Virus record (IMG/VR): IMGVR_UViG_2778261064_000019
DNA length: 35,546 bases
Strand: one strand, 5' to 3'
Source of the DNA: a virus
Taxonomy: Duplodnaviria; Heunggongvirae; Uroviricota; Caudoviricetes
Positions 1 through 34,475 of this stretch are shown here, piece by piece (position 1 is the stretch's first letter; every line of letters begins with the position of its first letter). The translations under genes were made by a program, and so were the position numbers. The notes beneath the pieces are model-generated. The model ran no database searches, had not been told where the DNA came from, and saw nothing but the letters and a program-made list of their open reading frames with translations.

Positions 1-1200
1 ATGCTGACCGATACCAAACTGAAAAACCTCAAAGCGCGGGAAAAACTTTATAAAGTTGCAGACCGTGATGGGCTGTATGTAACCGTATCTCCCAAGGGAT
101 TGGTGACGTTTCGCTATGACTATCGAATCAATGGTCGTCGTGAAACGTTAACTATTGGTCGCTATGGTGACGGTATTTCTCTGGCGCAGGCGCGCGAAAA
201 ATTAGTGGAAGCCAAAAAACGCGTAAATGCAGGAATATCGCCCGCTGGAGAGAAGCGTGACGGTAAAACAAAGCGAAAAGAAGAAAAGACACTCCACGAT
301 TTTACCGTCAGCTACATGAAACACACCCGGCTGGCGGACAGCACAAGGGCGATGAAGCAAAGCATTATCGACAGAGACATCACGCCAGTATGGGGGCGCA
401 AGCTGCTGTCAGAGATAACCCCCTCTCTCCTACGTGAGTATTGCGACAAGATAAAAGCGCGTGGTGCGCCAGCGACGGCGATTCAGGTTCGCAATATCGT
501 TAGTGCGGTATTTAAGTTCGCCGCGCTTCACGGCGACTATTACCCCAATCCTGCCGAAGAGGTTTTACCGGCTTCAATTGCGACATTCGAAGCGCGCGAC
601 AGGGCGCTCAAGCCAGAGGAGATAGGCTGGTTTTTCAATCAGCTTGAACAAACGGGTACATTACCCACCATCAAGCTGGCCATTAAATTGGTTTTATTAA
701 CGATGGTACGTAAAAGTGAACTGCTGAACGCTCCGTGGGGTGAGGTTAATTTTAATGCCTGCCTTTGGACGATTGACGCCAGCCGGATGAAGGGATCACG
801 GGATCATAATGTTTATCTGTCCCGGCAGGCACAGGACATTCTGATTGCCCTGAAAATGTGCGCAGGAAGCAGTGATTGGGTTTTGCCTTCATGCAATCAG
901 TCGTCGCATAAGACCATGTCGGCGGCGACCTTAAACCGGGTCATTAATCTTACGGTTAAGCAGGCGCAGGAACGGGGGATCAGGCTGGCGTCGTTTTCCG
1001 TTCACGATATGCGCCGAACGGCATCGACGTTATTGCATGAGGCGGGGTTTAATTCCGACTGGATAGAAAAATGCCTCGCGCACGAGGAAAGAAGCGTCAG
1101 AGCCGTTTATAACAAAGCGGAATACGCAGAGCAGCGCCGTGATATGTTGCAGCAGTGGGCGGATATGGTTGATGGGTGGATCAAGCAATACCGCCCGTAA
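1..1200 (+). CDS. int: Tyrosine integrase, P4/CP4-57-like family
   Basis: 399-aa ORF. N-terminus LTDTKLKNLK...DGLYVTVSPKG...FRYDYR is typical of P4-type integrases; C-terminal region HDMRRT...AHEERSVRAVY fits the tyrosine-recombinase catalytic region. ORF starts at the window edge, so the true 5' end and the att site are not visible. Confidence 0.85.
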   Translation: MLTDTKLKNLKAREKLYKVADRDGLYVTVSPKGLVTFRYDYRINGRRETLTIGRYGDGISLAQAREKLVEAKKRVNAGISPAGEKRDGKTKRKEEKTLHDFTVSYMKHTRLADSTRAMKQSIIDRDITPVWGRKLLSEITPSLLREYCDKIKARGAPATAIQVRNIVSAVFKFAALHGDYYPNPAEEVLPASIATFEARDRALKPEEIGWFFNQLEQTGTLPTIKLAIKLVLLTMVRKSELLNAPWGEVNFNACLWTIDASRMKGSRDHNVYLSRQAQDILIALKMCAGSSDWVLPSCNQSSHKTMSAATLNRVINLTVKQAQERGIRLASFSVHDMRRTASTLLHEAGFNSDWIEKCLAHEERSVRAVYNKAEYAEQRRDMLQQWADMVDGWIKQYRP

Positions 1201-1203
1201 GTA

Positions 1204-1458
1204 CTATGCGGGGATCTTGGTACCAGAGCGCTTTGGGACTTTGGCCAGATTTTTCTGTACCGCGTTATCAATATGGTGATGGTTATTTTCCTGCCGTGCT
1301 TTGAGCCAGCGTTCCACTTCCTCTTTGTCCCACGCGACGGCGCGCTTCGTTAGCGCAAAACGTTTGGGAAACAGGCCTTTTTGCTCCAACGCATAAATCG
1401 TACTTTCAGAGAGTGGCACCATCTGTAAAAGCACGTTTTTTCTAATGGCAATTTTCAT
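1204..1458 (-). CDS. AlpA-family HTH regulator / excisionase-like protein
   Basis: 84-aa ORF convergent with int (3-bp gap). Segment STIYALEQKGLFPKRFALTKRAVAWDKEEVERWL resembles AlpA/phage regulatory protein family. Start may be the internal Met at 1422. Confidence 0.65.
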   Translation of the reverse strand: MKIAIRKNVLLQMVPLSESTIYALEQKGLFPKRFALTKRAVAWDKEEVERWLKARQENNHHHIDNAVQKNLAKVPKRSGTKIPA

Positions 1459-2269
1459 TGTTTATTCCTTTAATCCAAAGGCACTCAGTTCTGATAACAG
1501 ATCCTTTTTTACCAGCAGCGGCAGATTGCTTTGTCTCTTTACGCCAGCCGGTTAGCAAATCGTTATACATTTCGGTGTCGTAGCCGCTGATAACCACGCT
1601 TCCTTGTAACCGGGTGACGGTCTCCAGTAAGCGCAGGTGGGCACCATCGTCCATTTCGTGGCGATAATATTTGTTAGTCAGATTACGGGTGCTATGAACA
1701 TACGGCGGATCGACAAAATGCAGCGTGTCGGCGGCGTCATGATCCAGAATACACTGGATGGCATCGCGGTTTTCCACCAGAACCCCTTCAAAACGCTGAC
1801 CAACGGCGGCCAGATTATCGGGCATACGGCTCCAGATGTGTTGGGCCGTTCCACTGGCGCGTTTAGTGTCCAGCCGAAAGCCGGTAGTGCCTTTAGTTGC
1901 CCCGGCAGAACCGAAGCCCATCGTGGCGCGAATCACTAAACGCCTTGCCTGTTCAACAGAATTTTTCCCATAGCGATAGGCCGAAATAAACTCGGTGCGG
2001 GAATAGGGTGTCAGGCTGCAGGCTTCAACCAGTCTTTCGCGCAGTTGTGGGGTACGAAGAACGGCGAACAGGTTAACGACGTCGCCATCCAGATCGTTGT
2101 AAACCTCGGCGTAGCTACGTGGTTTTCTGAGCAGTACGCTGGCTGCACCGCCGAAGGGTTCCACATAGCATCTGTGGGCCGGAAAGTGGCTAATGATCCA
2201 CGGAGCTAGTCGCCACTTGCCGCCGTGGTAGCGGATTGCAGGGTGCTTAATCATCCAGTTTTTCTCCAC
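1442..2269 (-). CDS. DNA N6-adenine methyltransferase (Dam-like, orphan)
   Basis: 275-aa ORF with N-terminal AdoMet-binding motif YVEPFGGAASVLL and catalytic DPPY motif (FVDPPYVHSTRN). No adjacent restriction enzyme gene. Confidence 0.8.
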   Translation of the reverse strand: MEKNWMIKHPAIRYHGGKWRLAPWIISHFPAHRCYVEPFGGAASVLLRKPRSYAEVYNDLDGDVVNLFAVLRTPQLRERLVEACSLTPYSRTEFISAYRYGKNSVEQARRLVIRATMGFGSAGATKGTTGFRLDTKRASGTAQHIWSRMPDNLAAVGQRFEGVLVENRDAIQCILDHDAADTLHFVDPPYVHSTRNLTNKYYRHEMDDGAHLRLLETVTRLQGSVVISGYDTEMYNDLLTGWRKETKQSAAAGKKGSVIRTECLWIKGINNENCH

Positions 2270-2846
2270 GCCGTTCTACGTTCAGGTGTCGCCACTGCAC
2301 CGCAATCCGTTTCATCACCGCATTCCCCTCTGGGATCACCTCCTGCGGCTCCTTCATCAACATGACCCGCCCCCGAATAACGATCAGCGCTTGTTCCAGC
2401 AGGCCATAGTCCAGATAACAGAGATCGGGAATATCCAGTTGCCACACATAGCCATTCCATGCTGAAAGTAGCACTTGCGCGGCGGCGCGTCCGCCGCTGG
2501 TTTCTGTGAGCGCGATTTTGGCAAGTGTATTGACGGCTGCGCCATATTCCTCTGGCGTGACGCGGAGTTTCTGCTGGCTGTTATCTTCTTTTGCCAGCGT
2601 TAATAATCCAATCGGGTGTAATACGCCCAGCTCTTCCATCTTTTCTTTCAATGTTGCAGCTGTATTCCATCCAATTCTGAATTTGCGCTGCAGGCGGCTG
2701 ATACTGATAATGCCTTCCGCCTCGGCCAGTTCGACCGCTTTGGGATAGAGTTCATTGAGCCGATATTCGTAATCAGCGAAGGGCGCACCGCTATTCTCTG
2801 GCAGGCCAGAGAGTGTTTGTGAATTATTTCCAGAGGATTTCATCAT
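2247..2846 (-). CDS. Hypothetical protein with FtsK-gamma-like winged-helix segment
   Basis: 199-aa ORF in the same minus-strand gene string as primase and Dam. Segment ISISRLQRKFRIGWNTAATLKEKMEELGVL resembles the FtsK gamma DNA-binding domain, judged from memory only. Confidence 0.45.
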   Translation of the reverse strand: MMKSSGNNSQTLSGLPENSGAPFADYEYRLNELYPKAVELAEAEGIISISRLQRKFRIGWNTAATLKEKMEELGVLHPIGLLTLAKEDNSQQKLRVTPEEYGAAVNTLAKIALTETSGGRAAAQVLLSAWNGYVWQLDIPDLCYLDYGLLEQALIVIRGRVMLMKEPQEVIPEGNAVMKRIAVQWRHLNVERRGEKLDD

Positions 2847-2856
2847 AATTTCCTTT

Positions 2857-5514
2857 TTAACGTTGAAAAACCCAACACTTCACCGTCGCCGGGCGGCGCG
2901 GTGCGGCTGGGTAACGGCGGTTAAATTCAGCGTTGATGCCGCTGTTAACCGTTCTGACTTCAATAAACTTGTGGGTACGGCTGGTTTTTAGCACTCGCTT
3001 CAAATCGCTGATCGGCGGGATCTGCTGGCGGCGCTCGGTAGCCAGTTGAATAAAGTGGTTAAGGTTAACGGCGATAAGCTGTTCATCGCGCGAGTGGTTG
3101 AGCTGTGGTTCGTCGTCGCCATCGAGGAAGTCGAAAATATCCCAGAACTCCTGCACCAGAGGATGGTCGGCGCTGATGGCCTGTTGGCGCTCCAGACTGA
3201 GGCGGATAAACATTTCTCTGGTCGCCTGTAGCTGCTCTTCCGTGACCGGAATAACCAGCGCCAGCGCGTCGAGCAGCGCCATAAGCTGGGCGTGGTTTTT
3301 AATGATGCGGATATGGCGAATATCTGGGTGGGAGTGAAGTTGCTGCTCGTATAGCGGGATCTGACGGTTAACGCACTCCAGCACGGCCTGTTCCGCCAGC
3401 GCTGCCTTCAGCATAAAGCCGGAAAGCTGTTCTACCGGCAGGCGTTCGAGCTGCTCGGCAGCGACCTTGGTCTGAGTATTCTGGCCGCTGCGGTCGGTGT
3501 ACAGGTGAATAATACGTTCCAGCACCGGGTTAGAGGCGCTAACATCGGCGTTTTGCGCAATCACAATCGCGCCCCGGAACGGCGGTTCATAGGTCTCGTT
3601 GCCGCTGTTACGCAGACCGCGAGAACGCACCGACCGCCCGTTATAGGCGGTTTTCAGCTCTTCCCAATCAAAGCCACGCTGCTTTGCCCCCTCCTGATTA
3701 CGGTCACCCTCGATCAGCACCACCGGCATATTTGCTACCTGCGCAAAGTTGCGCGCGCGGGCGGCCAGCGTTGATTTAGACGGATCGAAACCTTCATAGT
3801 CGCGTCGGCCCAACAGTTTTCAGAGGAACTCTATCAGCGTGGTTTTACCGCTGCCGGGTTCGCCAACGATTTCCAGAAATGGAAAGCTCTTGTGCTTGTC
3901 GCGGATCTGTTCGGCAAACATCGTCCCAAACCAGTACGCCAGCGCCACAAACCCCTTTGCGCCAAACGCCTGCCAGAGTAGCTGGGGCCACTGGCTGTCC
4001 ATCTGTTTTAAATTGTCGTTCAGCGTCAGGCTGACCGACTGGTTCAGGCTTTTAAGGCTAAGTTTGCCCATGTCGAAGAAGTCTTCTTCGTTGAGTGTGT
4101 ACAGCCGACCATCGCGAACGGCCAGATCGTTGAACACGTAAGCGCGGTATTCTTTGCTGTAGCCGATAAAATCAGTGGTCTGGACAGTTTTGATTTTGGG
4201 AAGCTGCTTGAGCAGCAACTTATCTAACTGCTGACTGGTGCCGGTGAAGATGCCGCCCTGCGCGATATGCAGCAGGCGCTTTTTGAATTCTGAGCCGCTG
4301 GAAAGTTGGGAGCCGGTGAAGGTGTTTTTTATCGGTGGAGTGTCGTCGGGGAAGTTAATGCGAAAGTAATACCAGCTTTCGTCGGTAATGGTGTTGGCCT
4401 GATAGTAGAGGGTGGTCGGGTAGCAGTTGGCTATCTCAACAACGGCGGCTGACTCCTGTAGCGCTTTATGTTTGGCTTCTTCTTCGTCCAGCTCCTCTTT
4501 GCCGTTATACATCACGTTATCAAAGGCACGCATATAACGGTCAATATCCAGCTTGAACCAGTACAGGCGGCTGTCGAACTCGAAGTGAAACTCTTTGCGT
4601 TCGGTACGCTCATGCATCAGTAATGCTTTGGCATTCGGATTGGGAGCGATCAACAGTGAACCGTAGTAACGATATTTTTTAATCAGATCCGGGTTTAGCC
4701 GATCGCGCTGGTGCAAATCGTTCCAGTCCAGCTTGGTGCGGGAATAGGGCGTTTGTGCGGCGGTGGAAAGCCAGCCGTCGTCGCGGCTGCGTTTTACCCA
4801 GCGGCGGGTGTAATTCATGCCCGCTTTGTCGTTATCCAGCGCCCAGACCAGTAAAGGACGCTTTTTATCCACGAACAGCGCGGCCAGTTGGCTTAACGCC
4901 TGCGCCGGATAGTTGTTACAGGTCATCAGGGAAACGGCGGCAATGCCGTGGTGGTGCAGGGCGATAGCGTCAAAAATGCCCTCAACCAGCCAGATCTCCT
5001 GCTGTTCTTCCAGCTTAAGCGTTGGCAATTGCCACCATAGCCCGCTGTAAGCGCCGTGAAAATTGGCTTTGCGATCGCCGAAACGCTGTGGGCGGTCAAC
5101 GATCCGCTCCCACCACACGCCGTCAGCCAGCGGGAAACGCACAGTGGCCGAGCCGAGATCGCGCCGTGCGTCATAGTAGTTCTCTTGAGCGTAACAGTTA
5201 CGGAGCAGCGAAAGGTCAAAGCCGCGCATCTCGCGCAGGTAGGCATCGGCGGCGGCCTGTGGGTTTTCCGGGGTTGGGGGATATCTGTCTGACCAGCTTT
5301 CAAATAGATCCGGGTACACCTCTTTGATATGGATTTCGGCATTGCATTTATTCAGGCGACCGCAGCGCAGTACCCACGGGCTGATGGCGTAGGTGTACAG
5401 CTCTTTTTTCTGGCAGTCCGGGCAGACGCCCTGCCGCAGCCAGTCGCCCTGTTCTTTAAAGGAAAAATCGGCTAGCAGTCGCCGCGTAATTTCCTGATGA
5501 AGTTGTGGTTGCAT
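2857..5514 (-). pseudogene. P4 alpha-like primase-helicase interrupted by an in-frame TGA (fragments 3820..5514 and 2857..3813)
   Basis: The two ORFs are in the same frame, separated by a single TGA at 3820..3822 (translation ...GEPGSGKTTLIEFL*KLLGRRDYEGF...). N-terminal Cys-rich zinc-binding motifs (CPDCQKK, CGRLNKC) and a Toprim-like segment (LVEGIFDAIALHHHG); Walker A (GEPGSGKTT) sits just before the stop, and the helicase region continues after it. Confidence 0.6.
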
Positions 5515-5602
5515 TGCCAGTACCTTTATTCAGGTAATACTTACCCGTCGCATAGACACGTTGTTTATGCGTTGTGGTTGTGAGTCTTTTATTTACTGAG
5601 CG

Positions 5603-5833
5603 TTACGCGATTTTCTGCTTTTGCAGAAATTGCCCGCGTGTGGATAGCGGTATGTGTATCTTAGGATTCGGGCAACCGCTGGGTACTACCGTTCCCATCA
5701 CGGTCTCCATCGCGATAAATGAAAACGAACAGTTAACGTTCTTGCACTGGTAATAGAGCTTACGTACCAGCGGTGACATATATTCGCTGCTGCGAATTAT
5801 CGCCTTACCGTCGCAGTGTGGGCATTTCATCAT
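5603..5833 (-). CDS. ogr: Ogr/Delta-family zinc-finger late-gene transcriptional activator
   Basis: MMKCPHCDGKAIIRSSE...YYQCKNVNCSFSF matches the Cys4 motif of P2 Ogr. Start set at ATG 5833 (AGGAG 7 nt upstream) rather than the longer ORF start at 5851. Monomer size (76 aa) is Ogr-like, not the duplicated P4 Delta. Confidence 0.85.
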   Translation of the reverse strand: MMKCPHCDGKAIIRSSEYMSPLVRKLYYQCKNVNCSFSFIAMETVMGTVVPSGCPNPKIHIPLSTRGQFLQKQKIA

Positions 5834-6156
5834 GTCCGATCTCCTTACCACTTTTAACTAACTGAAACACTAACGCTTTTCGTTAACGGACTGACGAAAT
5901 AGTGTGATGCCGTTCAAAAAAATGATTCTTGCCATGCTGGACATCGAACGGTTCTGCTCCAGCGCTAATGCTTACAGTTCCGCGATTTCAGCGGGGAGCA
6001 GACGCATTGCCACCGGTTTGTTCGACATCACCCCGCGGGGTGCTCGTGAGCGTAAGACGTTCTCATTTGTTTTCATGGTGGTATATTGTGGTTATTAACA
6101 TTACACAATCTATAATTCCCTCAATTGAGTGAATTGTCAATGGTAATTATATCCAA
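5834..6156. promoter_or_regulatory. Divergent intergenic control region between ogr (minus) and the XRE gene (plus)
   Basis: 323-bp non-coding gap between divergently transcribed genes. Contains a 14-bp perfect palindrome CACCCCGCGGGGTG (6029..6042), palindrome TCAATTGA (6121..6128), TATAAT (6111..6116) and TTGTCA (6135..6140). Promoter assignment is not resolved. Confidence 0.35.
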
Positions 6157-6495
6157 ATGAAAGAATTTGGCATCCGTTTGAAGGAAGAACGTATCCGACT
6201 TGGCCTTGATCAAGACGGCTTTGGACAACTTGGGGGCGTGAAGAAAAACGCACAAAGTAACTATGAGAATGGACTGCGCAAGCCGGACAGTGACTATCTT
6301 GCTGGCATAGCGGCAGCGGGAGTTGATGTTCTGTATGTTCTAACAGGCAACCGCACGCCTGTGGCTACGTTGTCCAGTAAAGAGAGTGTGTTGGTGGAGA
6401 ACTATCGTTCTGCTACGCCAGAACACCAGTCCACCCTTGACACGGTTAGCGCTGCGCTTGCGCAACCGGGAGTAGGGAAAGCAGCTAAGGGATAA
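6157..6495 (+). CDS. XRE-family helix-turn-helix regulator (candidate prophage repressor or cargo regulator)
   Basis: 112-aa ORF; N-terminal HTH pattern (IRLKEERIRLGLDQDGFGQLGGVKKNAQSNYENGLRKP) is typical of Cro/CI-type regulators. Divergent from the ogr-primase string, directly upstream of the AT-rich operon. Confidence 0.7.
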   Translation: MKEFGIRLKEERIRLGLDQDGFGQLGGVKKNAQSNYENGLRKPDSDYLAGIAAAGVDVLYVLTGNRTPVATLSSKESVLVENYRSATPEHQSTLDTVSAALAQPGVGKAAKG

Positions 6496-6535
6496 CGAGT
6501 AGAATGAATTTGGTTATTGTCTGTATGGAGGCAAA

Positions 6536-7108
6536 ATGAAGTTGAATAATCTGGTTGCTCTTTACAGGAACATGACAGAGCAAAAATTGGATAGGGTTAA
6601 ATTCCCATACAGACACAATAATTTACATTTTGATGTATTTTTCTTTATTGATGGAAAACCGTTTGAGCTTCTTTTCGGAGCATTAGGCGCTAATCTTTGC
6701 TTTCGTCTAAAAGTCGAGAAGGGATTCGTCATAAATCCTAATCTGGGAAGTGAGACTTATAAAGAATTATGCAAGGCGCTAGGTTTGAAATATGACCCTG
6801 CCAATCCATTTAGAACAAGTAAGTTTTTTGAAGATTTTGATGGGAAAATCCCTACATCGGTTACTGTTAAGAATAAGGCAAAATATACTGATATTGCTGT
6901 GCATGTCAGGGATGTTGAAGAAGCAGACAGAATATATTTCTGTGGATGGAAAAACAACAATGAAGAAAAGAGTCATGTTACTGAAGATAATTTAAAGAAA
7001 ACGAAAGAGTTTTTAGGGTATCAGGCTTTTCTTGTTTGTAAGGAAAAGAATATTAGCAGTAGATGGACTGATTTAGAAAATAAAGCAAAAGATTTTTATT
7101 TACCATAG
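6536..7108 (+). CDS. Hypothetical protein, AT-rich cargo operon gene 1
   Basis: 190-aa ORF with GGAGG-like RBS before the ATG. Strongly AT-biased codon usage unlike the flanking phage genes. No family recognised. Confidence 0.6.
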   Translation: MKLNNLVALYRNMTEQKLDRVKFPYRHNNLHFDVFFFIDGKPFELLFGALGANLCFRLKVEKGFVINPNLGSETYKELCKALGLKYDPANPFRTSKFFEDFDGKIPTSVTVKNKAKYTDIAVHVRDVEEADRIYFCGWKNNNEEKSHVTEDNLKKTKEFLGYQAFLVCKEKNISSRWTDLENKAKDFYLP

Positions 7109-7122
7109 GATTGTGAGGTTAT

Positions 7123-8271
7123 ATGTCTGATATTTCATTAGGGTGCGTGGTTGTTCATAGGTTGATAAAAGAGCAACATAAAGATTTCGATCACTCAAAA
7201 CCATATAGTCGCCGTGATACGGTTCTTGACCGAAATAATGAAATCGTAATTAAACTAGTGTCCAGTATAGCCGCATTGTATGGTAAAAAATCTAATAGCT
7301 CGCATTATGGTATATTTAATTTAGATGAAACACGCAGGGGGCCTTTTCCAGCGGAATTTGATAAATATCGGAATGATACATCCAAGAAGTTAGACGATGA
7401 ATTGTTTATAGGATTATCAAAAAATGTTATGCATCAGTTATATATTGAGGCAAAGGATCGACCTGCTGCATCAGGAGGATTACTTCTTTTTGCTGATTAT
7501 ATCAGTAAATCCGTGCGTTACTTTCTTATTGCAATGATTAAGCAAAAGGAAGGTATAGTTATTAGTGATAAATTAGAGCCAAAGGAGTTAGAGCATCTTG
7601 ATCTGGCAAAACTAAACCAGGCGGCACGAATAAACTATGATTTGTATGATAAATATATTTCCGCTGATGAGAATGAAAGACAGGATGTTAATTATTTAAG
7701 TTTTGTTAGTCCCAGTTCTAACCAGACAACTTCAGGGTATTTCATTACTGCCTTAGGTTGTGATAAAGGTAATACATCAACTAAAGCTACGAGTAATTTA
7801 ATTAATGAATCTTTTAACTTCTTCAGAAATCATCAAGAATTAAAGGATAATGCCCGTAAATTTAAAAATGAAATTATTGAGTATTTATTCGATTGTTCTG
7901 AAAATAACATTTCAGCTAAGCTCTCTGTTGTTAGTGAGATGGCGGCGAAGCATATGGTTAATTTAGAAGATGACATTAAAGATAAATTGTCAGAAGAATT
8001 ATATGCTCATTTGAATAGTGAAAGTATTCGTGTGCCTGTGGAATTTAGGGTAAGCAAATCAGTAGTTAAGAAAAACAGAAATATTAAATATACAAGTGAT
8101 AATGTTAATTTTGAGTTTAAATCTAGTTTACTAGGCAATACTCTTGATAATGAGATATGCTATAATAAGAAAACTGGACATTTAACTTTTACTCGGATTA
8201 CTCCTGAGAAAAAAAGTGAAATAGCTCAATTGCTTGATGAGTTAATAAAAGAAAGAAATAGCGAAAAATAA
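7123..8271 (+). CDS. YejK/NdpA-like (NA37 family) nucleoid-associated protein homologue, cargo gene 2
   Basis: 382-aa ORF, 14 bp after gene 1 with a GTGAGG RBS. Full-length pattern similarity to E. coli YejK as recalled: MSDISLGCVVVHRLIK vs MSLDINQIALHQLIK; ASGGLLLFADYISKSVRYFLIAMI vs [25 protein letters not shown]. Not verified by search. Confidence 0.6.
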   Translation: MSDISLGCVVVHRLIKEQHKDFDHSKPYSRRDTVLDRNNEIVIKLVSSIAALYGKKSNSSHYGIFNLDETRRGPFPAEFDKYRNDTSKKLDDELFIGLSKNVMHQLYIEAKDRPAASGGLLLFADYISKSVRYFLIAMIKQKEGIVISDKLEPKELEHLDLAKLNQAARINYDLYDKYISADENERQDVNYLSFVSPSSNQTTSGYFITALGCDKGNTSTKATSNLINESFNFFRNHQELKDNARKFKNEIIEYLFDCSENNISAKLSVVSEMAAKHMVNLEDDIKDKLSEELYAHLNSESIRVPVEFRVSKSVVKKNRNIKYTSDNVNFEFKSSLLGNTLDNEICYNKKTGHLTFTRITPEKKSEIAQLLDELIKERNSEK

Positions 8272-8282
8272 GGTTGCTTAAT

Positions 8283-8912
8283 ATGTCATGTTTTGAAACG
8301 GTTGTTGAGCTTTTCAGATATGTAGGGCGTCCTAAATTTGATGCTATTAATAATCGTTTTTCAGCAACTATTTCTTATGATGCTCATATATATGAACTCT
8401 TAGTTTCTTTGCAACCTCATACAGCGTGGGGAGAAATTGAAGAGATTGTCATTGATGATGTGGATATAGATGTTGATGATAGCCTTCCCGCTAAAGGAAC
8501 ATCAATAACACTGACAATCTCTATATCAACTGGAGCTAGTGAGTCATTTTTTATCGATATTAAAGATCTAATTCAAAAGTCTCCGATGTTAAATAGAGGT
8601 ATTTTAAGAAAGTCTTTTTACTTGGTTGAGGAAGATTTTTATTTTAATGAAGGAATGGTTGAGGGATTAGCAAAAATACCAGAACTATCTGTTTTAAAGA
8701 ATCTTTGTGATTTTATTTTATGTCTATCAAAAGTTGCACACTACAGCAATAGTAAAAGTGATGATGTATGCCATAAGTTAGTTTTCTTGAAAAATACTAA
8801 TGCTAAGTCATTACCTTTAATTATTGAAACTAATGTTGATTATTCACTTCTTTTAACAGGTATTAAGGATTTAAAAATCATCGAATCTTTTTCTGATGAA
8901 AAAAAGCTATAA
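8283..8912 (+). CDS. Hypothetical acidic protein, cargo gene 3
   Basis: ORF track starts at TTG 8274; the first ATG is at 8283, about 11 nt after the gene 2 stop. Contains acidic stretch EEIVIDDVDIDVDDS. No family recognised. Confidence 0.55.
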   Translation: MSCFETVVELFRYVGRPKFDAINNRFSATISYDAHIYELLVSLQPHTAWGEIEEIVIDDVDIDVDDSLPAKGTSITLTISISTGASESFFIDIKDLIQKSPMLNRGILRKSFYLVEEDFYFNEGMVEGLAKIPELSVLKNLCDFILCLSKVAHYSNSKSDDVCHKLVFLKNTNAKSLPLIIETNVDYSLLLTGIKDLKIIESFSDEKKL

Positions 8913-8956
8913 CGGATGATAATTATTTTGAGCGAAAAGGGATTTTCATTAATACG

Positions 8957-9538
8957 GTGGTCGATTTTCTTGAATCAATCGATGTAAAGAAACAGTTTCA
9001 TTTTTTATTCTGTGAGTGGGATGAATTTCTAAAACTATACCATAATAACCTCGGTGTATATCTTAGTGGTTTTTCATTTCATAAAGTAAGAAAGGAAGTG
9101 GCAGAGGCAGAAGCTAATTTAGCTGAGCGTTTTTCAAAAATAATGTCAGACATGATAGCTAAGCTTTTAGGTATTCCTGTTTCTTTGGTTGCTACTTTTG
9201 GCATGATAAAATTAAATACCCTGCCGGAAATGTTAGTGGTTTTTTTAGGTGTATTGCTCACGTCGATAATTATGTTTTTTATTGTAAGAAGTCAATACAC
9301 ACAGTTTAGGATGATTTGTGATGCTAAAGATATTATATTTTCCCCATTAGTGAAAAAATCTGTAGGTTATACAGAAGATTTGAAAAAATTAGTATGCAAT
9401 GCAAAGGATAATTTAGACAAAAATCAGGTCATGTTAAATCGTTACCTTCTTTTCTTTCAATGCTTATGCTGGATTCCGACAGCCTTAGGTGGTGGAATGA
9501 TCTTAATGGCTATTATGGTTCATTTAGGATTACTATAA
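8957..9538 (+). CDS. Predicted multi-pass membrane protein, cargo gene 4
   Basis: Hydrophobic segments IPVSLVATFGMI, MLVVFLGVLLTSIIMFFIV and YLLFFQCLCWIPTALGGGMILMAIMVHLGLL. Track start is a GTG at 8957, so the true start is uncertain. Stop codon overlaps the gpD stop convergently. Confidence 0.5.
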   Translation: MVDFLESIDVKKQFHFLFCEWDEFLKLYHNNLGVYLSGFSFHKVRKEVAEAEANLAERFSKIMSDMIAKLLGIPVSLVATFGMIKLNTLPEMLVVFLGVLLTSIIMFFIVRSQYTQFRMICDAKDIIFSPLVKKSVGYTEDLKKLVCNAKDNLDKNQVMLNRYLLFFQCLCWIPTALGGGMILMAIMVHLGLL

Positions 9539-16159: not shown

Positions 16160-16918
16160 TTAATTCAGGATAATCAGTTCTGATGTGGTGCTGGCTGGCT
16201 TTCCACCTACGGTATAGCGAATCCCTACCGTTGAGAATGTCAGGCCGTGGAAGATATCGCGCATTTCCGGGATGTCGTTAACCGAGATAATCATCCGGCC
16301 CTGCATGGTGCGCGCCAGCTCTGCCATACGCTGGTACTGCTCAAGGCCAAATGGTACGCCGTAGCCTTCGGTTTTCCAGTATGGTGGGTCGCAGTAGAAC
16401 AGGGTATGCGGGCGGTCATAGCGGCGAATACAGTCGGCCCAGTCCAGATTTTCAATGCAGACGCGCGCCAGCCGCAGATGGGCGGCGGATAAATCCTCTT
16501 CCATACGCAGCAGGTTCAGGCGCGGCGGTGAGGTGGTGGCGGTACCGAACGTGCGACTTTCCACTTTGCCGCCGAATGCCAGCTTTTGCAGATAGTAGAA
16601 GCGCGCCGCGCGCTGGATATCGGTCAGCGTTTCTTCCGGGGTGATCTGGAGCCAGCGGTACATTTCGCGGCTGACCAGCGACCATTTAAACTGGCGGACA
16701 AACTCTTCTAAATGGTGCTGAAGTACGCGGTAGAGGTTGGTAACGTCACCGTTGATATCGTTCAGCACCTCGGCCTGTGCGGGCTGTTTCATAAAGAACA
16801 ACGCTGCCGCCCCGCAGAACGGTTCAACGTAGCAGCGGTGTTTGGGAAACAGTGGCAGAATGTGTTTTGCCAGCCTGCGCTTACCGCCGATCCACGGAAT
16901 AACGGGTAACGTATTCAA
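16160..16918 (-). CDS. DNA N6-adenine methyltransferase (Dam-like), second copy
   Basis: 252-aa ORF with YVEPFCGAAALF AdoMet motif and DPPY motif (FYCDPPYWKTEGYG). Sits between the tail fibre assembly gene and FI, the position of the P2 Z/fun locus. Confidence 0.8.
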   Translation of the reverse strand: MNTLPVIPWIGGKRRLAKHILPLFPKHRCYVEPFCGAAALFFMKQPAQAEVLNDINGDVTNLYRVLQHHLEEFVRQFKWSLVSREMYRWLQITPEETLTDIQRAARFYYLQKLAFGGKVESRTFGTATTSPPRLNLLRMEEDLSAAHLRLARVCIENLDWADCIRRYDRPHTLFYCDPPYWKTEGYGVPFGLEQYQRMAELARTMQGRMIISVNDIPEMRDIFHGLTFSTVGIRYTVGGKPASTTSELIILN

Positions 16919-17382: not shown

Positions 17383-18077
17383 CCTGATGAGTAGTCGTAA
17401 CCCATAACCGCCTGCACCTCCGTCAACGCTTCAACGGCGGCAATATGCTGCTGGGCAGCGGCGAACAGGCGCATATCGTGCGCCATTGTTTCGGTTTCAA
17501 ACCGGGCGGCGATCTCGTTGGTTAGTTCAATCAGGTTGTGATTTTTGGTCTGCCACATTAAGCCTGCCGGTATTTGTTTAGCCACGCCCATTTTGGTGAG
17601 CGAGAGCTGCTGGATGCGGCTGTTAGCGTCGCTGTGGAAATGGTGATTATCGATGATGATGTAGTCAGCGGTGATTCGATCGCGATACTGCTTTATTTCT
17701 GCCACCTTTGCCTGTCGGGCTTTTTCGATATCGGGCTGCCAGCGTTTGCCGTCCCAACGGACAAAGGCGTTATCGGGCTTCAGCAGAGTGACGTTATCCG
17801 GCAATGGCCCCAGATGATGAAGCTGTACCTCACTGCCCGCATCGGTATCAAACGCGGTTTTACCGCGATGATCTTCTACCGCAAGCCATGTTTCTCCGTT
17901 GAATGTCAGGGCAAAGCCGCTCTGGCATTCGGGCGGTTCGATAGTGGTACAGCATTCCGGTAAGCCGGTGTTGGGGGCGATATAGGCGTCGCTGACGCCG
18001 ATAAATTCCTGAGTATCTGCCGCGTAGTTAAAGATGCGCAGGGTTTGCGGTTCGTCGGAAAATGCGAATGTGCTCAT
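17370..18077 (-). CDS. Putative tail fibre assembly protein (gpG position)
   Basis: 235-aa ORF directly after the tail fibre gene with a 4-bp overlap. Assignment is by position only. Confidence 0.5.
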
Positions 18078-19339
18078 GCCAGCCTCACGATATAGTTGAA
18101 AGCGATATTTTTAACGGTGTTTTCGGTGTTCCCGGCGGCGTTCACCGTAATAGTGTGGCTGTGGGAACCCAAGGCGATAGCGTGGTTATGCGCGCCGATA
18201 GTCAGCGAATGGGTATGAGCGCCGATGGCTACTGTGTGAGTATGGACACCGTCTGTACTGGTTCTGAATTTGTAGTTATCCCAGTCTGTGTCTGCAGACC
18301 CCTGATTATTACGGGTACTGTCGAAGTAACCGTGACGTCCACCGCTGGCTTCACCCCATCCGCTGTCGTGGTTGTGAGCACCGGCTGACGCTGTTGATTT
18401 TGTCCCGTAGTCAAACGCGCTGGTATTTTTAGTACCCAAATCGGTGGAACTGGCAGTTTTAGTGCCTAAATCTGTGTTAGTGGCGCTGGCTGTGTGACTA
18501 TGAGATTTAACGCCATCCTGTTCCTGAGACAGTATCGAGCGTCCGCTGGCGGGTTTCCCCTTGATTGTCCAGCCGCGCATATCCGGGATTACCCCAGAGG
18601 GGTAAGCGATTGCCAGTTTAGGGTAGGCGGTTTTATTGAAGGACTGACCGACCATCAGGGCGTAGCCGCTGGGGATTGCATCGGATGACCACGGTATCGG
18701 CGTGCCGACCGGACAGGTTTCCGCCGCCAGCGCTTTGTCTACTGCCGCTTTCACCGCCTTGGGCGTGGCGGCCAGTGTTTCGCTGATGCTGTTGGTCGCA
18801 CTGCTTAATTGAGTAAAACCTTTGGCAGTTAACGTGGCGTCAGGATGGTTACGGGACTGCACGTGGCACGTCAGGCTTTCATCCACATACTGTCTTGTTG
18901 CCAGCACCACGGCAGGGTCGATTTTCAGCTCCACGTTTTCCGTATGGGAGACAATCAGCACCATGCGGATAATCTGCGTGCGGCCCGAACCTTCGATTAA
19001 CTGCGGCTTGTAGGTTGGCGGGCAGTTGCCGACGGCAATCAGCCGGTCGTGCTCGTCGTACAGGCCAATTTCTCTGATCCACCATCCGCCTACATCCTCC
19101 GGTAGTACCTGTTCGGCAATAATCTGGTTGGGGTTGTTAGGGTCAATACTGAGCGTATTCAGCGGCGCACGTCGGCGTTCGTTGATTAACCGGGTTTGGC
19201 CAGTCTCCGGTGTTGGCAGGTTACCGTTTCCGTCGCCCACGGCCATTTGCGTCAGATGAAGAGGTGAACCCTGTGCGGTGGCGGTCGCCAGCGCGGATTC
19301 GCCGGTAGTGGTTAATAGCGTGAAATAGGTAGCGCTCAT
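18074..19339 (-). CDS. H: Tail fibre protein (gpH-like)
   Basis: 421-aa ORF with a gpH-like N-terminus ([20 protein letters not shown]...MAVGDGNG) and C-terminal Gly/His-rich repeats (TDLGTK x2, GAHTHS / GAHNHA / GSHSHT). Confidence 0.75.
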
Positions 19340-19950: not shown

Positions 19951-20854
19951 CGCTTCCCCCGATGGCAATTTTCCATCCGGTGCAGTAGCTGGCCTGCGTT
20001 TTGTTGATAATGACATCAACGGCAGGGGAGAGCAGTTCTACGCGCTGAACACCGGTGACATGCAGTGCGGCGTAAATCGCGCTGCGGCGAATATCACGCC
20101 CGATCCGATGCTGGTCATTAACGTAGCTTTTTAGCCGCTGCTCGGCGGCCTGCCGAATGGGTTCCTGCTCCGGGCCAGGATAGCAATAAAGTACGGCATC
20201 AATCTGATATGGGATCACTTCGGCGGACTGAATGGTTGGGCGATCACCTACCGGACGAATATCAATATCGTTCAGGGCGGAATCGACTATCGCCAGCAGT
20301 TCTGCGCTGGCCAGCCCGTTGCCTTCGCGGGAGAGTACCGACACGGTGACGTAACAAGGATAGGGGCTGATAGCGGAGACGTCTGCGATACGCCCGTCTG
20401 CGCTGCGGGCGTGATATTCGTAGGCGGCGGTCGGGCCTGCGACGGACAGACCTTCAAACGCCTGCTGTGCGCGCATTCGTAAATCGCTGTCGGATTCATA
20501 AACCGGATCAACGGGCGGTATCGCCGTACTGTCTCCGGGCGAAATTTGCAGGCGAAAAACCTTAAAGTTAGCGACCAGATTATCCAGATCGCGCCCGGCG
20601 GCATGGGCCAGCATATTAGCAACGGCGGCTTCATTGATGCGTACCCGCAGCGCCATCTCTAAGTAAGTATTTTCCTGCAACAGCTTGACGAAGGGTTCTG
20701 ATTCATAGCCCAGTGTGCGGGTAACTTCTGCTTGCTGTTCGGCAGGATACAGGCTGATAAAGCGCTGCTTGCGGGCGGTTAGCAGGGTTTCAAAATCGAC
20801 TGTTTCCACCACATCGGGGATCGGTAATTGGCTTAAATCGGTCAGTGCGCTCAT
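19943..20854 (-). CDS. J: Baseplate assembly protein gpJ-like
   Basis: Start set at internal Met (MSALTDLSQLPIPDV...), overlapping the gpW stop. Size about 303 aa, as P2 J. Confidence 0.8.
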   Translation of the reverse strand: MSALTDLSQLPIPDVVETVDFETLLTARKQRFISLYPAEQQAEVTRTLGYESEPFVKLLQENTYLEMALRVRINEAAVANMLAHAAGRDLDNLVANFKVFRLQISPGDSTAIPPVDPVYESDSDLRMRAQQAFEGLSVAGPTAAYEYHARSADGRIADVSAISPYPCYVTVSVLSREGNGLASAELLAIVDSALNDIDIRPVGDRPTIQSAEVIPYQIDAVLYCYPGPEQEPIRQAAEQRLKSYVNDQHRIGRDIRRSAIYAALHVTGVQRVELLSPAVDVIINKTQASYCTGWKIAIGGSDE

Positions 20855-21168
20855 GGACGTCTCCTGTCGATTGGAATGGAGAATGTCCACGGCTGGCCGG
20901 GGATATCGGTACGTTCGGCTTCAATAGTGACGCTAAGATCGGCATTATCCGCAGCAAAGTCCACACCGATAATCTCGATGCGGGGTTCCCAGCGCGTCAG
21001 CGCCATGACCACTGCCGACATCACCCGTAGCCGGGTAGCGCCATCGTTGGGCTGGTCGATCAGGTTGCCGATCAGTGAGCCATAATCGCGACGCATCACG
21101 CGCGTACCTACCGGCGTGGTCAAAATATCTTTTACGGATTGCTTAATGTGCAACTCGTCGCTTAACAC
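20851..21168 (-). CDS. W: Baseplate protein gpW-like
   Basis: 105-aa ORF between V and J, size and position as P2 W. Confidence 0.8.
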   Translation of the reverse strand: MLSDELHIKQSVKDILTTPVGTRVMRRDYGSLIGNLIDQPNDGATRLRVMSAVVMALTRWEPRIEIIGVDFAADNADLSVTIEAERTDIPGQPWTFSIPIDRRRP

Positions 21169-21199
21169 TCTGCCGGTTTCGCGTTCATACCGAGGTACA

Positions 21200-21905: not shown

Positions 21906-22241
21906 TTAACCGTGCGCAGCCTTCATCAGTGTATCGTTAATCCACTGGTTAACGCTTTTACCGGAGACTTCTGCCGCAACGTTAATGGCAGAGTGAATTT
22001 CAGGTGGAATACGCAGGCTGATTTTTCCGCTGGCCGGACGCAACGGCTCCCGGCCCCGTTCCTCGCAGTAAGCCAGATAGTCGTCTACCGCCTCTTCAAA
22101 CGCTTTACGCAGATCGGCAACATTATCGGCATGAAAGCCAATGACATCCCGAATGCCTGCAACGTGACCAACAATGCATTGATCTTCATCGCTGTATTCA
22201 ATTTTTGCGGCATAGCCTCTATATGTCATGGTATTCATCAT
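21906..22241 (-). CDS. hicB: HicB-family antitoxin
   Basis: 111-aa ORF 4 bp-overlapped with the upstream hicA-like gene. C-terminal RHH-like segment (KISLRIPPEIHSAINVAAEVSGKSVNQWINDTL). Confidence 0.75.
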   Translation of the reverse strand: MMNTMTYRGYAAKIEYSDEDQCIVGHVAGIRDVIGFHADNVADLRKAFEEAVDDYLAYCEERGREPLRPASGKISLRIPPEIHSAINVAAEVSGKSVNQWINDTLMKAAHG

Positions 22242-22501
22242 GGTGTTACCCCTACAGCTTCAAGGAATGTTCTGGCATCGCGAACCTGATAGGCTTTCGC
22301 TTCTTTTTCCGGGTGTGGACGATGAAATGAAGCCACAACCTGATTAATTTCAAACCTGACGCGGGAACCGTTTCCTTCCGTAGCAATAGCCCCCAAAGCA
22401 ATAAATAAGGCTTCTATTTTTCGCCATTCCAGCGTGACAGGTGTTGGCGTAGAAAAAACAGCTTGTAAGGTTTTTTTATGTTTGGCGCTTAACGTATTCA
22501 T
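22238..22501 (-). CDS. hicA: HicA-family toxin (mRNA interferase)
   Basis: 87-aa ORF with GS..RF.......FHRPHP.KE pattern consistent with the HicA fold, in hicA-hicB order. Confidence 0.65.
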   Translation of the reverse strand: MNTLSAKHKKTLQAVFSTPTPVTLEWRKIEALFIALGAIATEGNGSRVRFEINQVVASFHRPHPEKEAKAYQVRDARTFLEAVGVTP

Positions 22502-26608: not shown

Positions 26609-26797
26609 ATGGCGAAGAATAGCAGTCCTGCCAGCCGATACGGTATCAAGGTCGTAAAAAGAGACAGTATGAGCGGGCAGTTTGTACCCGTCGAAATGAA
26701 GCTGGACGGCCCGGAAGGTGAGCGTGTGATTAAAAAGTCGGCAGAGCGTATTTATGCCAGACACAACAAAGTCATTAAGGCGCTGGCTAACCGATGA
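26609..26797 (+). CDS. Putative antitoxin partner of Doc (family unassigned)
   Basis: 62-aa ORF whose stop overlaps the doc ATG (ATGA), the classic coupled toxin-antitoxin arrangement. Sequence does not resemble Phd as recalled. Confidence 0.45.
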   Translation: MAKNSSPASRYGIKVVKRDSMSGQFVPVEMKLDGPEGERVIKKSAERIYARHNKVIKALANR

Positions 26798-27171
26798 TTG
26801 ATGCACATTTGGTGATTGGAATTCACGACTTTATTCTTGCTCATGAGCCGGGATTGGTTGGTTATCAGGATGCTGGCCGGGTCGAGGCAACACTGGCACG
26901 GGTGGATAACCGTATTCTGTATGAGCAGATGAATGATATTTTCCAGATCGCCGCATCTTATGCGGTTGCCATCGCCAGAGGGCACGTTTTTGCTGATGCC
27001 AACAAGCGAACGGCACTGGTGACGGCGTTGACATACCTTGATATGCAGGGTGTGAACCTCAAGCGAACACAAAAGCTGGAAGATATTATGGTGGATGTGG
27101 CTGAGGGAACGCTAAATCTGGATGATTTAGCCGATATTTTCTATACCCTTAGTGATGTAAATGCTTCCTGA
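26794..27171 (+). CDS. doc: Doc (death-on-curing) / Fic-family toxin
   Basis: 125-aa ORF with the Fic/Doc active-site motif HVFADANKRTAL. Confidence 0.8.
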   Translation: MIDAHLVIGIHDFILAHEPGLVGYQDAGRVEATLARVDNRILYEQMNDIFQIAASYAVAIARGHVFADANKRTALVTALTYLDMQGVNLKRTQKLEDIMVDVAEGTLNLDDLADIFYTLSDVNAS

Positions 27172-30772: not shown

Positions 30773-32557
30773 ATGCCGCCAGACATCGAAAAACATCTGC
30801 TTGCCCTTCAGGACGAAGATCCACGCCGTAAAGCCCGCTATCTGTACTGGCAGGGTTTTCGCATTGCGCGGATCGCTGAACTATTGGGGGTGAAAGTTAC
30901 CACGCTGCATAGCTGGAAGCGGCGCGATGGCTGGGACGAATCCGCCCCGCTGGAGCGGGTGACGGCGGTGACCGAAGCGCGGCTGATCCAGCTCACGGTG
31001 AAGGAAAATAAGGAGGGAAAGGATTTTAAGGAGATCGACCTGCTCTGGCGGCAGATGGAGCGCGGGGCAAGGGTTGAACGCTATCAGCAGGGGGGCAATG
31101 AGGTCGACCTGAACCCTGCTCTTGCGAAGCGTAACGCCGGGCCGCGCAGACAGCCGGAAACCAACCATATCAGCGAGGAGCAGGCGGAGAAGCTGAAACA
31201 GTTATTTCTGGACGGACTGTATCCGCACCAGAAACACTGGTACCGCGCCGGGCTGGAACACCGTATCCGCGATATCAACAAGTCGCGCCAGATTGGGGCG
31301 ACGATGTTCTTCGGGCGGGAAGGATTTATGGATGCGGTGGAGAGCGGGCGCAACCAGATCTTTCTCTCGGCCTCCAAAGCGCAGGCGCACCAGTTCCGCC
31401 AGTACATTGTCGATTTTGCTCGTGAGGCGGATGTTGAGCTGAAGGGCGAAGTCATTCACTTGCCGCATAATGATAGCCGGATGTATTTTCTCGGCACCAA
31501 TGCCCGCACCGCCCAGACCTATCATGGCAACCTGTATCTGGATGAATACTTCTGGATACACCGCTTTTTGGAACTGCGCCGTAACGCGGCGGGGATGGCC
31601 AGCCAGAAACGCTGGCGGCAGACCTACTTTTCCACACCGTCCAGCATTACCCACGAAGCCTATAAGTTCTGGACAGGGCAACTGTTCAACAAGGGCAGGC
31701 CGAAGAGCGAACAGATTCGACTGGATATCAGCCATCGGGCGCTGGCGGCGGGGCGTCTGTGTGAAGACGGCCAGTGGCGGCAAATCGTCACCGTTGAGGA
31801 TGCCATCAATCAGGGTTATGACCTGTTCGACCTTGAGCAACTCAGGCTGGAGAACTCGCCGGAAGAGTTCGCCAACCTGTTTATGTGCCAGTTTATCGAC
31901 GATACCGCATCGGTATTCCCACTAAGCATGTTGCAGGGTTGCATGGTCGATAGCTGGGAAGTCTGGGACGACTACAAGCCGTTTGCCCTGCGTCCGCTCG
32001 GCGAACGCTCGGTGTGGGTGGGGTACGATCCCGCATTAAGCGGTGACAGCGCCGGGTGCGTGATGGTCGCGCCGCCGGTCATTGAGGGCGGCAAGTTTCG
32101 GGTAATTGAAAAGCACCAGTGGCACGGGATGGACTTCGCGGCGCAGGCGGAAAATATCCGCAAAATTACCGAGCGCTATAACGTGACTTACATCGGTATT
32201 GACGTGACCGGCATCGGCCACGGCGTGCATCAACTGGTGAAACAGTTCTTCCCGGCAGTGCAGGCATTCTCTTATTCCCCAGAAGTGAAACAGCGTCTGG
32301 TGCTGAAAACGCTGGACGTTGTCCGTAAACGCCGACTGGAGTTTGACGCCGGATGGACGGATCTGGCGCAGGCGTTTATGGCAATTCGCAAAACCCTGAC
32401 TCCGTCCGGGCGTCAGGTGACCTTCGAGGCCAGCCGTTCGGAAGAAGTCTCCCACGCGGATCTGGCATGGGCGTGTATGCACGCCATTATCAATGAACCA
32501 CTGGAAAGCTCCGGCGGCGCGAACAGCGGGCGGGGCTTAATTAAGGTGTACGGATGA
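30773..32557 (+). CDS. P: Terminase large (ATPase) subunit gpP-like
   Basis: 594-aa ORF, size and divergent position as P2 P. Confidence 0.9.
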   Translation: MPPDIEKHLLALQDEDPRRKARYLYWQGFRIARIAELLGVKVTTLHSWKRRDGWDESAPLERVTAVTEARLIQLTVKENKEGKDFKEIDLLWRQMERGARVERYQQGGNEVDLNPALAKRNAGPRRQPETNHISEEQAEKLKQLFLDGLYPHQKHWYRAGLEHRIRDINKSRQIGATMFFGREGFMDAVESGRNQIFLSASKAQAHQFRQYIVDFAREADVELKGEVIHLPHNDSRMYFLGTNARTAQTYHGNLYLDEYFWIHRFLELRRNAAGMASQKRWRQTYFSTPSSITHEAYKFWTGQLFNKGRPKSEQIRLDISHRALAAGRLCEDGQWRQIVTVEDAINQGYDLFDLEQLRLENSPEEFANLFMCQFIDDTASVFPLSMLQGCMVDSWEVWDDYKPFALRPLGERSVWVGYDPALSGDSAGCVMVAPPVIEGGKFRVIEKHQWHGMDFAAQAENIRKITERYNVTYIGIDVTGIGHGVHQLVKQFFPAVQAFSYSPEVKQRLVLKTLDVVRKRRLEFDAGWTDLAQAFMAIRKTLTPSGRQVTFEASRSEEVSHADLAWACMHAIINEPLESSGGANSGRGLIKVYG

Positions 32558-33534
32558 ATAACTCAATGGCTTTCACCTTCGGTGAACCTGAAGCCCTGCT
32601 GGACAGGCGGGAAATACTGAACTATCTGGAGTGCGTGGACTTTGGCAAATGGTATGCGCCGCCGGTGGATTTTAATTCGCTGGCGCTGTCGTTCCGCGCT
32701 TCGGCGCATCATACCAGCCCGATCTGCGTGAAGCGCAACGTGCTGGTTGGTACCTTCATACCTCATCCGTTGTTGACCCGGCAGGCGTTCAGCCGCCTTG
32801 CGCTGGACTATCTGGTATTCGGCAATGCCTATCTGGAGCGGCAGGATAACCGGCTGGGCCAGCCGTTAACGCTGGTGCCTGCGCTGGCGAAGTATGTCCG
32901 GCGCGGCAAGGCGCTGGACAGCTATTTCTTTGTTCAGCCCGGTAAAGTGGATCATGAGTTTGCGTCGGGCAGTATCGGCCACCTGCTGGAGCCGGATATC
33001 AATCAGGAAATCTACGGCCTGTCGGAATACCTCTCTGCGCTGAACGCGGCATGGCTGGATAACTCCGCCACGCTGTTTCGCCGTCGTTACTACAAGAACG
33101 GCAGTCATGCCGGTTTCATCCTCTACCTGAGCGACCCGGCCCACAACGAGGCGGATATTGGGGCGTTACAGGAAGCGCTAGCGAACAGCCGTGGCCCCGG
33201 CAACTTCCGCAATCTGCTGATGTATCTGCCGAACGGCAAGCCAGACAGCGTAAAGGTTATCCCGATTGGCGAGGTGGCGGCGAAAGATAACTTCTCCGAT
33301 ATCAAGAGTGTCAGCCGTGACGACCAGTTAGCTGCGCACCGGGTACCACCTGCGCTCATGGGCGTGGTACCGAGTAACGCCGGTGGCTTTGGTGATGCCA
33401 TCAAAGCGGCGAAGGTATTCAACTGCAATGAGATCGAGCCGCTACAGGAACGGTTCAAGGAGCTGAACGACTGGCTGGGGCTGGAGGTTATTCGCTTCAA
33501 AAAGTACCGCCTTGCCGACGACGATTCAGAGTAA
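32554..33534 (+). CDS. Q: Portal protein gpQ-like
   Basis: 326-aa ORF overlapping the P stop by 4 bp. Confidence 0.85.
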   Translation: MNNSMAFTFGEPEALLDRREILNYLECVDFGKWYAPPVDFNSLALSFRASAHHTSPICVKRNVLVGTFIPHPLLTRQAFSRLALDYLVFGNAYLERQDNRLGQPLTLVPALAKYVRRGKALDSYFFVQPGKVDHEFASGSIGHLLEPDINQEIYGLSEYLSALNAAWLDNSATLFRRRYYKNGSHAGFILYLSDPAHNEADIGALQEALANSRGPGNFRNLLMYLPNGKPDSVKVIPIGEVAAKDNFSDIKSVSRDDQLAAHRVPPALMGVVPSNAGGFGDAIKAAKVFNCNEIEPLQERFKELNDWLGLEVIRFKKYRLADDDSE

Positions 33535-33579
33535 CCCCACCAACGACCAGCTCACTATCAGAGCCACCATGCGCCATTC

Positions 33580-33603
33580 AGCCCGCTTCCTGCGGGCTTT
33601 TTT
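33580..33603 (+). terminator. Rho-independent terminator after the portal gene
   Basis: Stem AGCCCGC / GCGGGCT with a 5-nt loop, followed by TTTTT. Confidence 0.65.
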
Positions 33604-33853
33604 ACGCCTTCTCACCGCCAGAATCCCCGGTCAGCACCGCCAGCGCGCGGTTGTGACCCCGCCACGCCTGCGCAGTAAATAGATCGCTTTTTTTGCACTG
33701 GTGCGTAAGCGTCGGAGCGGGCCATAACGGGAGGGCGTGGTCGGGTTGCAGTTGCAGCAGAATCATGCGGATTTATACGCCCTGTGTATGCGCCAGAGAC
33801 GATCGGGAGGGCAATGCCACGATCCTTTCGGTATTTTTGGATCGCCTGTCGGG

Positions 33854-34138: not shown

Positions 34139-34407
34139 CCGAAGTCCCCACGGACTTTGGTATATATAGATAGGTTAAAAAGTAGCCGTTATGTTTGCCA
34201 GCTATTTACTTCCCATTCTTCCACTGGCCAGCATGTTAATATGCCCGGTAATGATAACTAGTTGCCATTGGGTTACTTTCTTCTGTGGACGGTAAAACTG
34301 ACGGTAAATTGGGTTGTGGGTCTCGATTTAGATTAGTAAAATCAAGTGATTAAGTCGACTGTAGATAATCGAGTGGGAATGATTTGATCCCTGCACTATG
34401 AATTAGC

Positions 34408-34437: not shown

Positions 34438-34475
34438 ATACTCACGAATCATAGGATTGAAGTTACTGACATCGC

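Follow-up and report, generated by a model that had tools for sequence, protein, structure and literature searches.

An inherited TGG-to-TGA stop codon interrupts the phiCTX-type primase-helicase gene of a P2-like Escherichia prophage

A P2-like prophage of Escherichia carries a real, inherited TGG-to-TGA stop codon in its replication gene, a phiCTX-orf37-type primase-helicase gene of PHROG 1139 (positions 2857 to 5514, minus strand; 885 codons plus the natural stop). Together with a frameshift in the baseplate wedge gene gpW, this stop marks an ordinary decaying prophage, a reading to which we assign a probability of about 0.88 and which two independent knock-outs in essential lytic genes fit. 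A G-to-A transition in one Escherichia lineage turned the invariant Trp565 codon, TGG, into TGA, so that translation ends about six to seven residues past the Walker A motif in a prophage presumably decaying under relaxed selection for lytic growth. The feature is an ordinary nonsense pseudogene and is already known in kind.

The window, that is, the whole stretch of 35,546 nucleotides analyzed here (IMG/VR record IMGVR_UViG_2778261064_000019), is a P2-like prophage. Its gene layout was read off a 99.95% identical prophage adjacent to guaA in E. coli 24A16CRGN010 (NZ_CM148325.1), hereafter called the twin. The integrase gene int (1 to 1200) adjoins guaA, and the right end and flank of the window carry the host genes yfgI and yfgH. 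An early operon on the minus strand encodes an Ogr/Delta protein, the large Toprim protein that is the subject of this report, a DUF7673/FtsK-gamma protein, a Dam methylase, and an AlpA-like regulator. The prophage has a complete P2-type tail, lysis, and head set, with the terminase and portal genes last (30773 to 33534), and a phiCTX-type replication gene stands in place of the P2 rolling-circle protein gpA.

Between the early region and gpD lies a plus-strand cargo block (6157 to 9538) that encodes an HTH protein, a DUF6037 protein, an NA37 nucleoid-associated protein, and two hypothetical proteins. This block varies among relatives, with a “GTP pyrophosphokinase” and a nucleoid-associated protein in L725 and a different 418-aa hypothetical protein in GMF054, and it looks like a variable accessory or defense hotspot. 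A second variable cargo site lies at the right end of the prophage, where the portal gene and yfgI flank it. Two DUF262 genes occupy this site in GMF054, a 94% related prophage (L014, 33890 to 37119), while its counterpart in the window (33535 to 34475) holds non-coding or short sequence only. A HicA/HicB toxin-antitoxin pair lies within the tail-gene cluster (21906 to 22501, minus strand), a Doc/Fic-type toxin gene with a small upstream gene lies near the head genes (26794 to 27171, plus strand), and there are two separate DNA adenine methylase genes (1442 to 2269 and 16160 to 16918, both on the minus strand).

Translation of 2857 to 5514 on the minus strand yields 885 codons with a single internal stop, a TGA at 3820 to 3822 that is codon 565 and is TGG in the twin. 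The context of the stop in the joined frame is ...GEPGSGKTTLIEFL*KLLGRRDYEGF, and in fuller form ...VGEPGSGKTTLIEFL*KLLGRRDYEGF, where the asterisk is the stop codon. The initial annotation had described two open reading frames in the same frame, 3820 to 5514 and 2857 to 3813, split by this TGA just after the Walker A motif. Translation reproduced both coordinates and sequence exactly, and the motif GEPGSGKT ends six residues before the stop codon and seven before the lost Trp565. The upstream frame starts with ATG and encodes a truncated product of 564 aa (3823 to 5514) that includes only the putative zinc ribbon, the Toprim primase, the helicase N-terminal or collar domain, and the P-loop, with domain limits taken from a Pfam scan and an AlphaFold model. 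The remainder, aa 566 to 885 (2857 to 3819, minus strand), is untranslated. A chance juxtaposition of two reading frames is excluded, since the joined frame aligns at 100% coverage with single-polypeptide homologues of 877 to 910 aa and with PHROG 1139. The match to the “DNA primase” profile of that family is full length (E = 0, 1,260 bits; residues 3 to 885 against profile positions 2 to 889 of 895).

The ancestry of the stop is evident from close relatives. The twin encodes an intact orthologue of 885 aa (WP_103253370.1; P0123) at the same position in a prophage with the same insertion site, and its gene differs from that of the window at 2 of 2,658 nucleotides (99.9% identity). One difference is at position 3820 (TGG to TGA, W565*) and the other at position 4413 (GCC to ACC, A368T). 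The base mutated in the stop codon is position 3820, which is T on the plus strand of the window and C in relatives, corresponding to G to A on the coding strand. The polarity of changes was set with GMF054 as the outgroup. GMF054 has C at 3820, showing that the change is derived on the window lineage, and Trp565 is encoded in both of the ∼94% relatives examined, GMF054 (94.3%) and L725 (93.8%).

Conservation of the residue is complete over much greater distances. Tryptophan is found in 120 of the best 120 database matches, all of which are 877 to 910 aa long and none of which is truncated, and at the equivalent position in the proteins of phiCTX, BR319a, and Sirocco, the three phages of the phiCTX group that were checked. 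Across 32 aligned homologues with identities down to 56%, the W565 column is likewise invariant. In an 86-member cluster, the sole entries of 564 aa and 290 aa are identical to the window allele. Homologues that end naturally at this position, which would have spoken against a mutation, were found neither among the best 120 matches nor among the phages inspected or the cluster members. The proposal of a TGG-to-TGA nonsense mutation is thus borne out by the twin, the outgroup, and all 120 homologues. A premature stop relative to full-length homologues and an ancestral sense codon one substitution away are what characterize a nonsense pseudogene.

The second derived change in the gene, A368T (4411 to 4413, minus strand), was placed by the same twin and outgroup comparison and replaces an alanine that is nearly invariant in the helicase N-terminal domain of the 32 aligned homologues. 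A368T was seen solely alongside the stop codon. Seven derived single-nucleotide changes fall on the window branch and four on the twin branch, with non-synonymous to synonymous ratios of 5:2 and 3:1, respectively, which are too few sites to show relaxed selection statistically.

The initial annotation had also raised the alternative of a sequencing error, and one mismatched base against a gene of 99.9% identity is what such an error, with TGG as the true codon, would look like. This alternative did not survive the search for further carriers. Among the 7 to 9 contigs that carry the exact 564-aa product are NCBI records and Logan assemblies from separate SRA runs (SRR5185401 and SRR2914463), and the product has a RefSeq entry (WP_241957483.1). 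The TGA is visible in the DNA of other carriers (L005 and L006), the site is outside any homopolymer, and members of the lineage are 1 to 2 single-nucleotide changes apart, indicating separate isolates rather than copies of one assembly. The stop is therefore reproducible and not an assembly artifact, and we consider a sequencing or assembly error extremely improbable. The intact allele, which differs from that of the window at residues 368 and 565 alone, is present on 359 contigs. Because about nine separate contigs carry TGA versus 359 with the intact allele, we conclude that the TGA allele is a real, inherited minority variant.

A natural or programmed split, in which the locus would encode a primase and a separate helicase C-terminal part or in which UGA would be recoded, for example as selenocysteine, must also be weighed. 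Certain phage replication proteins, T7 gp4 being one example, exist as two forms, and gene callers do annotate a 290-aa open reading frame downstream of the stop (2857 to 3729, minus strand), which starts at Met596 (position 3729) and contains no P-loop. This frame was called in L005 and L006, and its exact sequence occurs on 9 contigs. However, only a weak AGGT lies upstream of its start, at a distance of 9 nt, and position 3813, where the downstream frame opens, offers TTG without a Shine-Dalgarno sequence and thus no credible start of its own. A split here would separate Walker A from Walker B within the ATPase core, and the best 120 homologues, the genes of phiCTX, BR319a, and Sirocco, and the other cluster members are single polypeptides with tryptophan. 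BR319a and Sirocco, which show two features under the match and were considered as possible natural splits, proved to have single coding sequences with an overlapping neighbor gene. Selenocysteine is further disfavored by the homologous residue, which is Trp and not Cys, and by the absence of a SECIS-like hairpin after the stop. The predicted fold of the 76 nt that surround and follow the stop is no more stable than that of shuffled controls (z = +0.73), and no Rfam family matches within 2700 to 6200, on which grounds selenocysteine insertion and programmed readthrough were rejected; a phage-borne suppressor tRNA was rejected because the window has no tRNA genes. A natural or programmed split is accordingly most unlikely, and the evidence continues to favor a nonsense mutation in a gene for one polypeptide.

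What the truncation removes was assessed from the architecture of the intact protein. Pfam recognizes the Toprim domain only (aa 175 to 267; Toprim_2, E = 2.6e−12), and about two thirds of the protein lies outside Pfam coverage. A search of PDB chains with the family profile returned marginal DnaG Toprim matches (E ≥ 0.06) and nothing for the helicase half, and NCBIfam returned only sub-threshold dnaG matches and P-loop noise. An AlphaFold model of the intact protein, built from the 32-sequence alignment, is confident (mean pLDDT of 85.5). Near the N terminus, a putative Cys4 zinc ribbon (aa 29 to 57; 5344 to 5430, minus strand) is modeled as short β strands with a pLDDT of ∼90. Its four cysteines, C31, C34, C51, and C57, are invariant among the 32 homologues, although no Pfam zinc-ribbon profile, including Zn_Ribbon_Prim (PF08273), matches the window protein. 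The Toprim domain, the catalytic domain of a DnaG-type primase, follows at aa ∼173 to 270 (4705 to 4998, minus strand), and the full model matches the structure of the zinc-binding and RNA-polymerase domains of Aquifex DnaG (2au3).

The C-terminal half has the marks of an AAA+ ATPase. The Walker A motif or P-loop GEPGSGKT (aa 551 to 558; 3841 to 3864, minus strand) contains G551, G554, G556, and K557, all invariant in the 32 homologues, and is modeled as a strand (546 to 551) followed by a helix (557 to 567) in which the stop falls. Beyond the stop lie the Walker B strand VVLIEGD (aa 598 to 604; 3703 to 3723, minus strand) with invariant E602 and D604, a sensor-1-like strand IVIAQN (aa 650 to 655) with Q654 and N655 invariant in the same alignment, and R667, which is also invariant. 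According to the predicted structure, the lost part further includes lid helices and a C-terminal helical or winged-helix-like domain. The modeled fold of the helicase part matches Cch and SaPIbov1 Rep, with the same three tiers of N-terminal domain, AAA+ ATPase, and C-terminal winged helix. The intact protein thus appears to begin with a zinc ribbon and a DnaG-type primase, to continue with an N-terminal helicase domain like that of Cch and an AAA+ ATPase, and to end in a C-terminal domain that binds DNA.

On this model, the 564-aa product should keep a folded primase along with the helicase N-terminal domain, but Walker B, sensor-1, and the lid are missing from it, as are a candidate arginine finger and the C-terminal domain. 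Because Walker B, sensor-1, and the C-terminal domain are absent, we infer that the product would be unable to hydrolyze ATP, unwind DNA, or bind an origin. It is a reasonable inference from the sequence that the prophage has lost replication initiation and with it autonomous replication. The stop may also exert Rho-dependent polarity on the genes downstream, which encode the DUF7673, Dam, and AlpA-like proteins. A search of 1200 to 6600 for iterons or an origin gave no convincing iterons, only short two-copy repeats typical of chance, and a scan for promoters and terminators near the gene gave nothing above shuffled expectation.

Comparison of the whole window with the twin revealed 11 confidently placed substitutions outside the tail-fiber repeat junction, one length difference of 396 bp, and one gap of 1 bp; the BLAST total is 15 mismatches, the remainder being in the repeat overlap at 18744 to 18792. 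The 1-bp gap is a deletion in codon 7 of gpW (baseplate wedge, GPW_gp25; 20851 to 21199, minus strand), between positions 21180 and 21181. The deleted base is a T, with GCGAA in the window versus GCTGAA in the twin and GCCGAA in the outgroup. The site is not a homopolymer, and the frame shifts after 7 residues. At least three other assemblies of the lineage share the deletion. They include NCBI assembly GCA_015336985.1 and two further SRA assemblies, and these two represent separate isolates of one lineage since they differ from the window by 1 to 2 single-nucleotide changes. The twin has an intact gpW, and the deletion is a second inactivating lesion in this prophage. The length difference reflects the copy number of a 132-bp (44-aa) tandem repeat, with a motif ending ...GIVQLSS, in the tail-fiber gene (18074 to 19339, minus strand), which has one copy in the window and four in the twin. 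The change is in frame, giving a protein of 421 aa versus 553 aa, and is not obviously disabling; the one-copy form is found on 13 contigs.

Of the E. coli stop codons UGA is the leakiest, and near-cognate Trp-tRNA might yield enough full-length primase-helicase for the prophage to stay replication competent. In E. coli K-12, Trp-tRNA competes with RF2 at UGA and supports readthrough of ∼2% at 37°C and 4% at 25°C (PMC10570021). The inserted residue would be the ancestral Trp565, and since readthrough would restore the exact wild-type protein, the TGA allele may be a strong hypomorph rather than a strict null. Against its sufficiency, no readthrough stimulator was seen in the RNA fold, the Rfam search, or the tRNA gene content of the window; the allele is rare (about 9 contigs versus 359 intact); and the lineage tolerates a gpW frameshift, which speaks against continuing selection for lytic function. 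If the helicase acts as a hexamer, as Cch and Rep do, a large excess of truncated subunits still bearing the N-terminal domain could poison its assembly. Because truncated subunits would outnumber full-length ones in the hexamer and the lineage shows no sign of lytic selection, it is unlikely that the leaky stop suffices for function.

Still less probable is that the TGA allele has been kept for a function, either as a domesticated superinfection-exclusion factor, whose abundant 564-aa fragment of primase and helicase N-terminal domain would poison the hexameric replication protein of incoming related phages, or as a throttle on prophage replication, with Trp readthrough supplying a low dose of exact wild-type protein that depends on growth state. 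The known leakiness of UGA, and nothing further, supports these proposals, and plain decay is favored by the gpW frameshift found alongside the stop and by how rare the allele is. With plain decay as the preferred reading, both open reading frames should be annotated together as one replication-gene pseudogene and not as two proteins, and the prophage of this lineage should be scored as probably defective given its two independent lesions.

The closest known systems are the phiCTX orf37-type proteins, which are full-length homologues with 45 to 58% identity and 98 to 100% query coverage for those at 48 to 58%. A megablast search of the phage collection gave no match, and the phage relatives were found by tblastn alone; these are full-length, single-CDS genes in Ralstonia phage RSY1, Escherichia phage ESSI2_ev239, phiCTX (orf37), Dobby, Sirocco, Smp131 (Stenotrophomonas, orf39), and others. 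Genes of the phiCTX (Citexvirus) type share the genomic position of the window gene, following ogr in the early operon of P2-like genomes, but they are intact and encode the tryptophan where the window has TGA. No biochemical study of these proteins is apparent, and the literature found describes them only as “DNA primase-like.”

The initial annotation had called the protein P4 alpha-like, a name that fits by analogy, for its order of domains and its role, but not as a statement of family membership. The predicted order of functions is the one in P4 alpha, namely, a zinc-binding N terminus (putative in the window protein), a Toprim primase, a P-loop helicase of hexameric type, and a domain for DNA binding at the C terminus. 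P4-type proteins carry D5_N/Primase_Cterm domains, as do Cch2 and SaPI5 Rep (PMC9371898; PMC7581432). In sequence, only the Toprim domain is shared, and an hhalign alignment to P4 alpha covered the Toprim region alone (P4 alpha residues 184 to 345; probability 83%, E = 9.5e−6). P4 alpha (NC_001609) matches Zn_Ribbon_Prim, Toprim_3, D5_N, DUF5906, and Pox_D5, whereas the window protein matches Toprim alone above threshold, with no D5_N plus DUF5906/SF3 ATPase core and no Pox_D5/Primase_Cterm domain at its C terminus (E = 3.6e−16 in P4 alpha). Membership in the P4 alpha/D5 (SF3) family was therefore rejected; the modeled fold is like that of Cch and SaPIbov1 Rep and not D5-like. Nor was an SF4 RecA-type helicase domain of the T7 gp4/Twinkle type found C-terminal to the primase. 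Matches to T7 gp4 and Twinkle are short (∼159 to 242 aligned residues or columns) and fall among the DnaG-type primase-domain matches, and the helicase thus does not look like one of SF4 type.

The fold is instead shared with Cch of SCCmec (5dgk) and SaPIbov1 Rep (8tch), at an identity of only 11 to 13%; a profile search of the PDB gave no sequence-level match to either at an E value of ≤1, and Pfam DUF927 does not match the window protein at an E value of ≤0.1. Cch (DUF927) and SaPIbov1 Rep are MCM-like self-loading initiator helicases whose C-terminal winged helix recognizes origin iterons (PMC9371898; PMC7581432), and 3′-5′ helicase activity and iteron or origin binding are known biochemically for the staphylococcal proteins only (PMC9371898). 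The assignment of the helicase part of phiCTX-type proteins to this fold, which comes from the structural model, is mildly new. Cch and SaPIbov1 Rep have no fused primase, whereas the intact protein of ∼885 aa would join an N-terminal zinc ribbon and DnaG-type Toprim primase to an AAA+ self-loading initiator helicase of the Cch/SaPIbov1-Rep, MCM-like fold. The uncharacterized “DNA primase” that replaces gpA in phiCTX-type phages would then be such a fusion, which offers a concrete hypothesis for how replication starts in a large group of P2-like phages.
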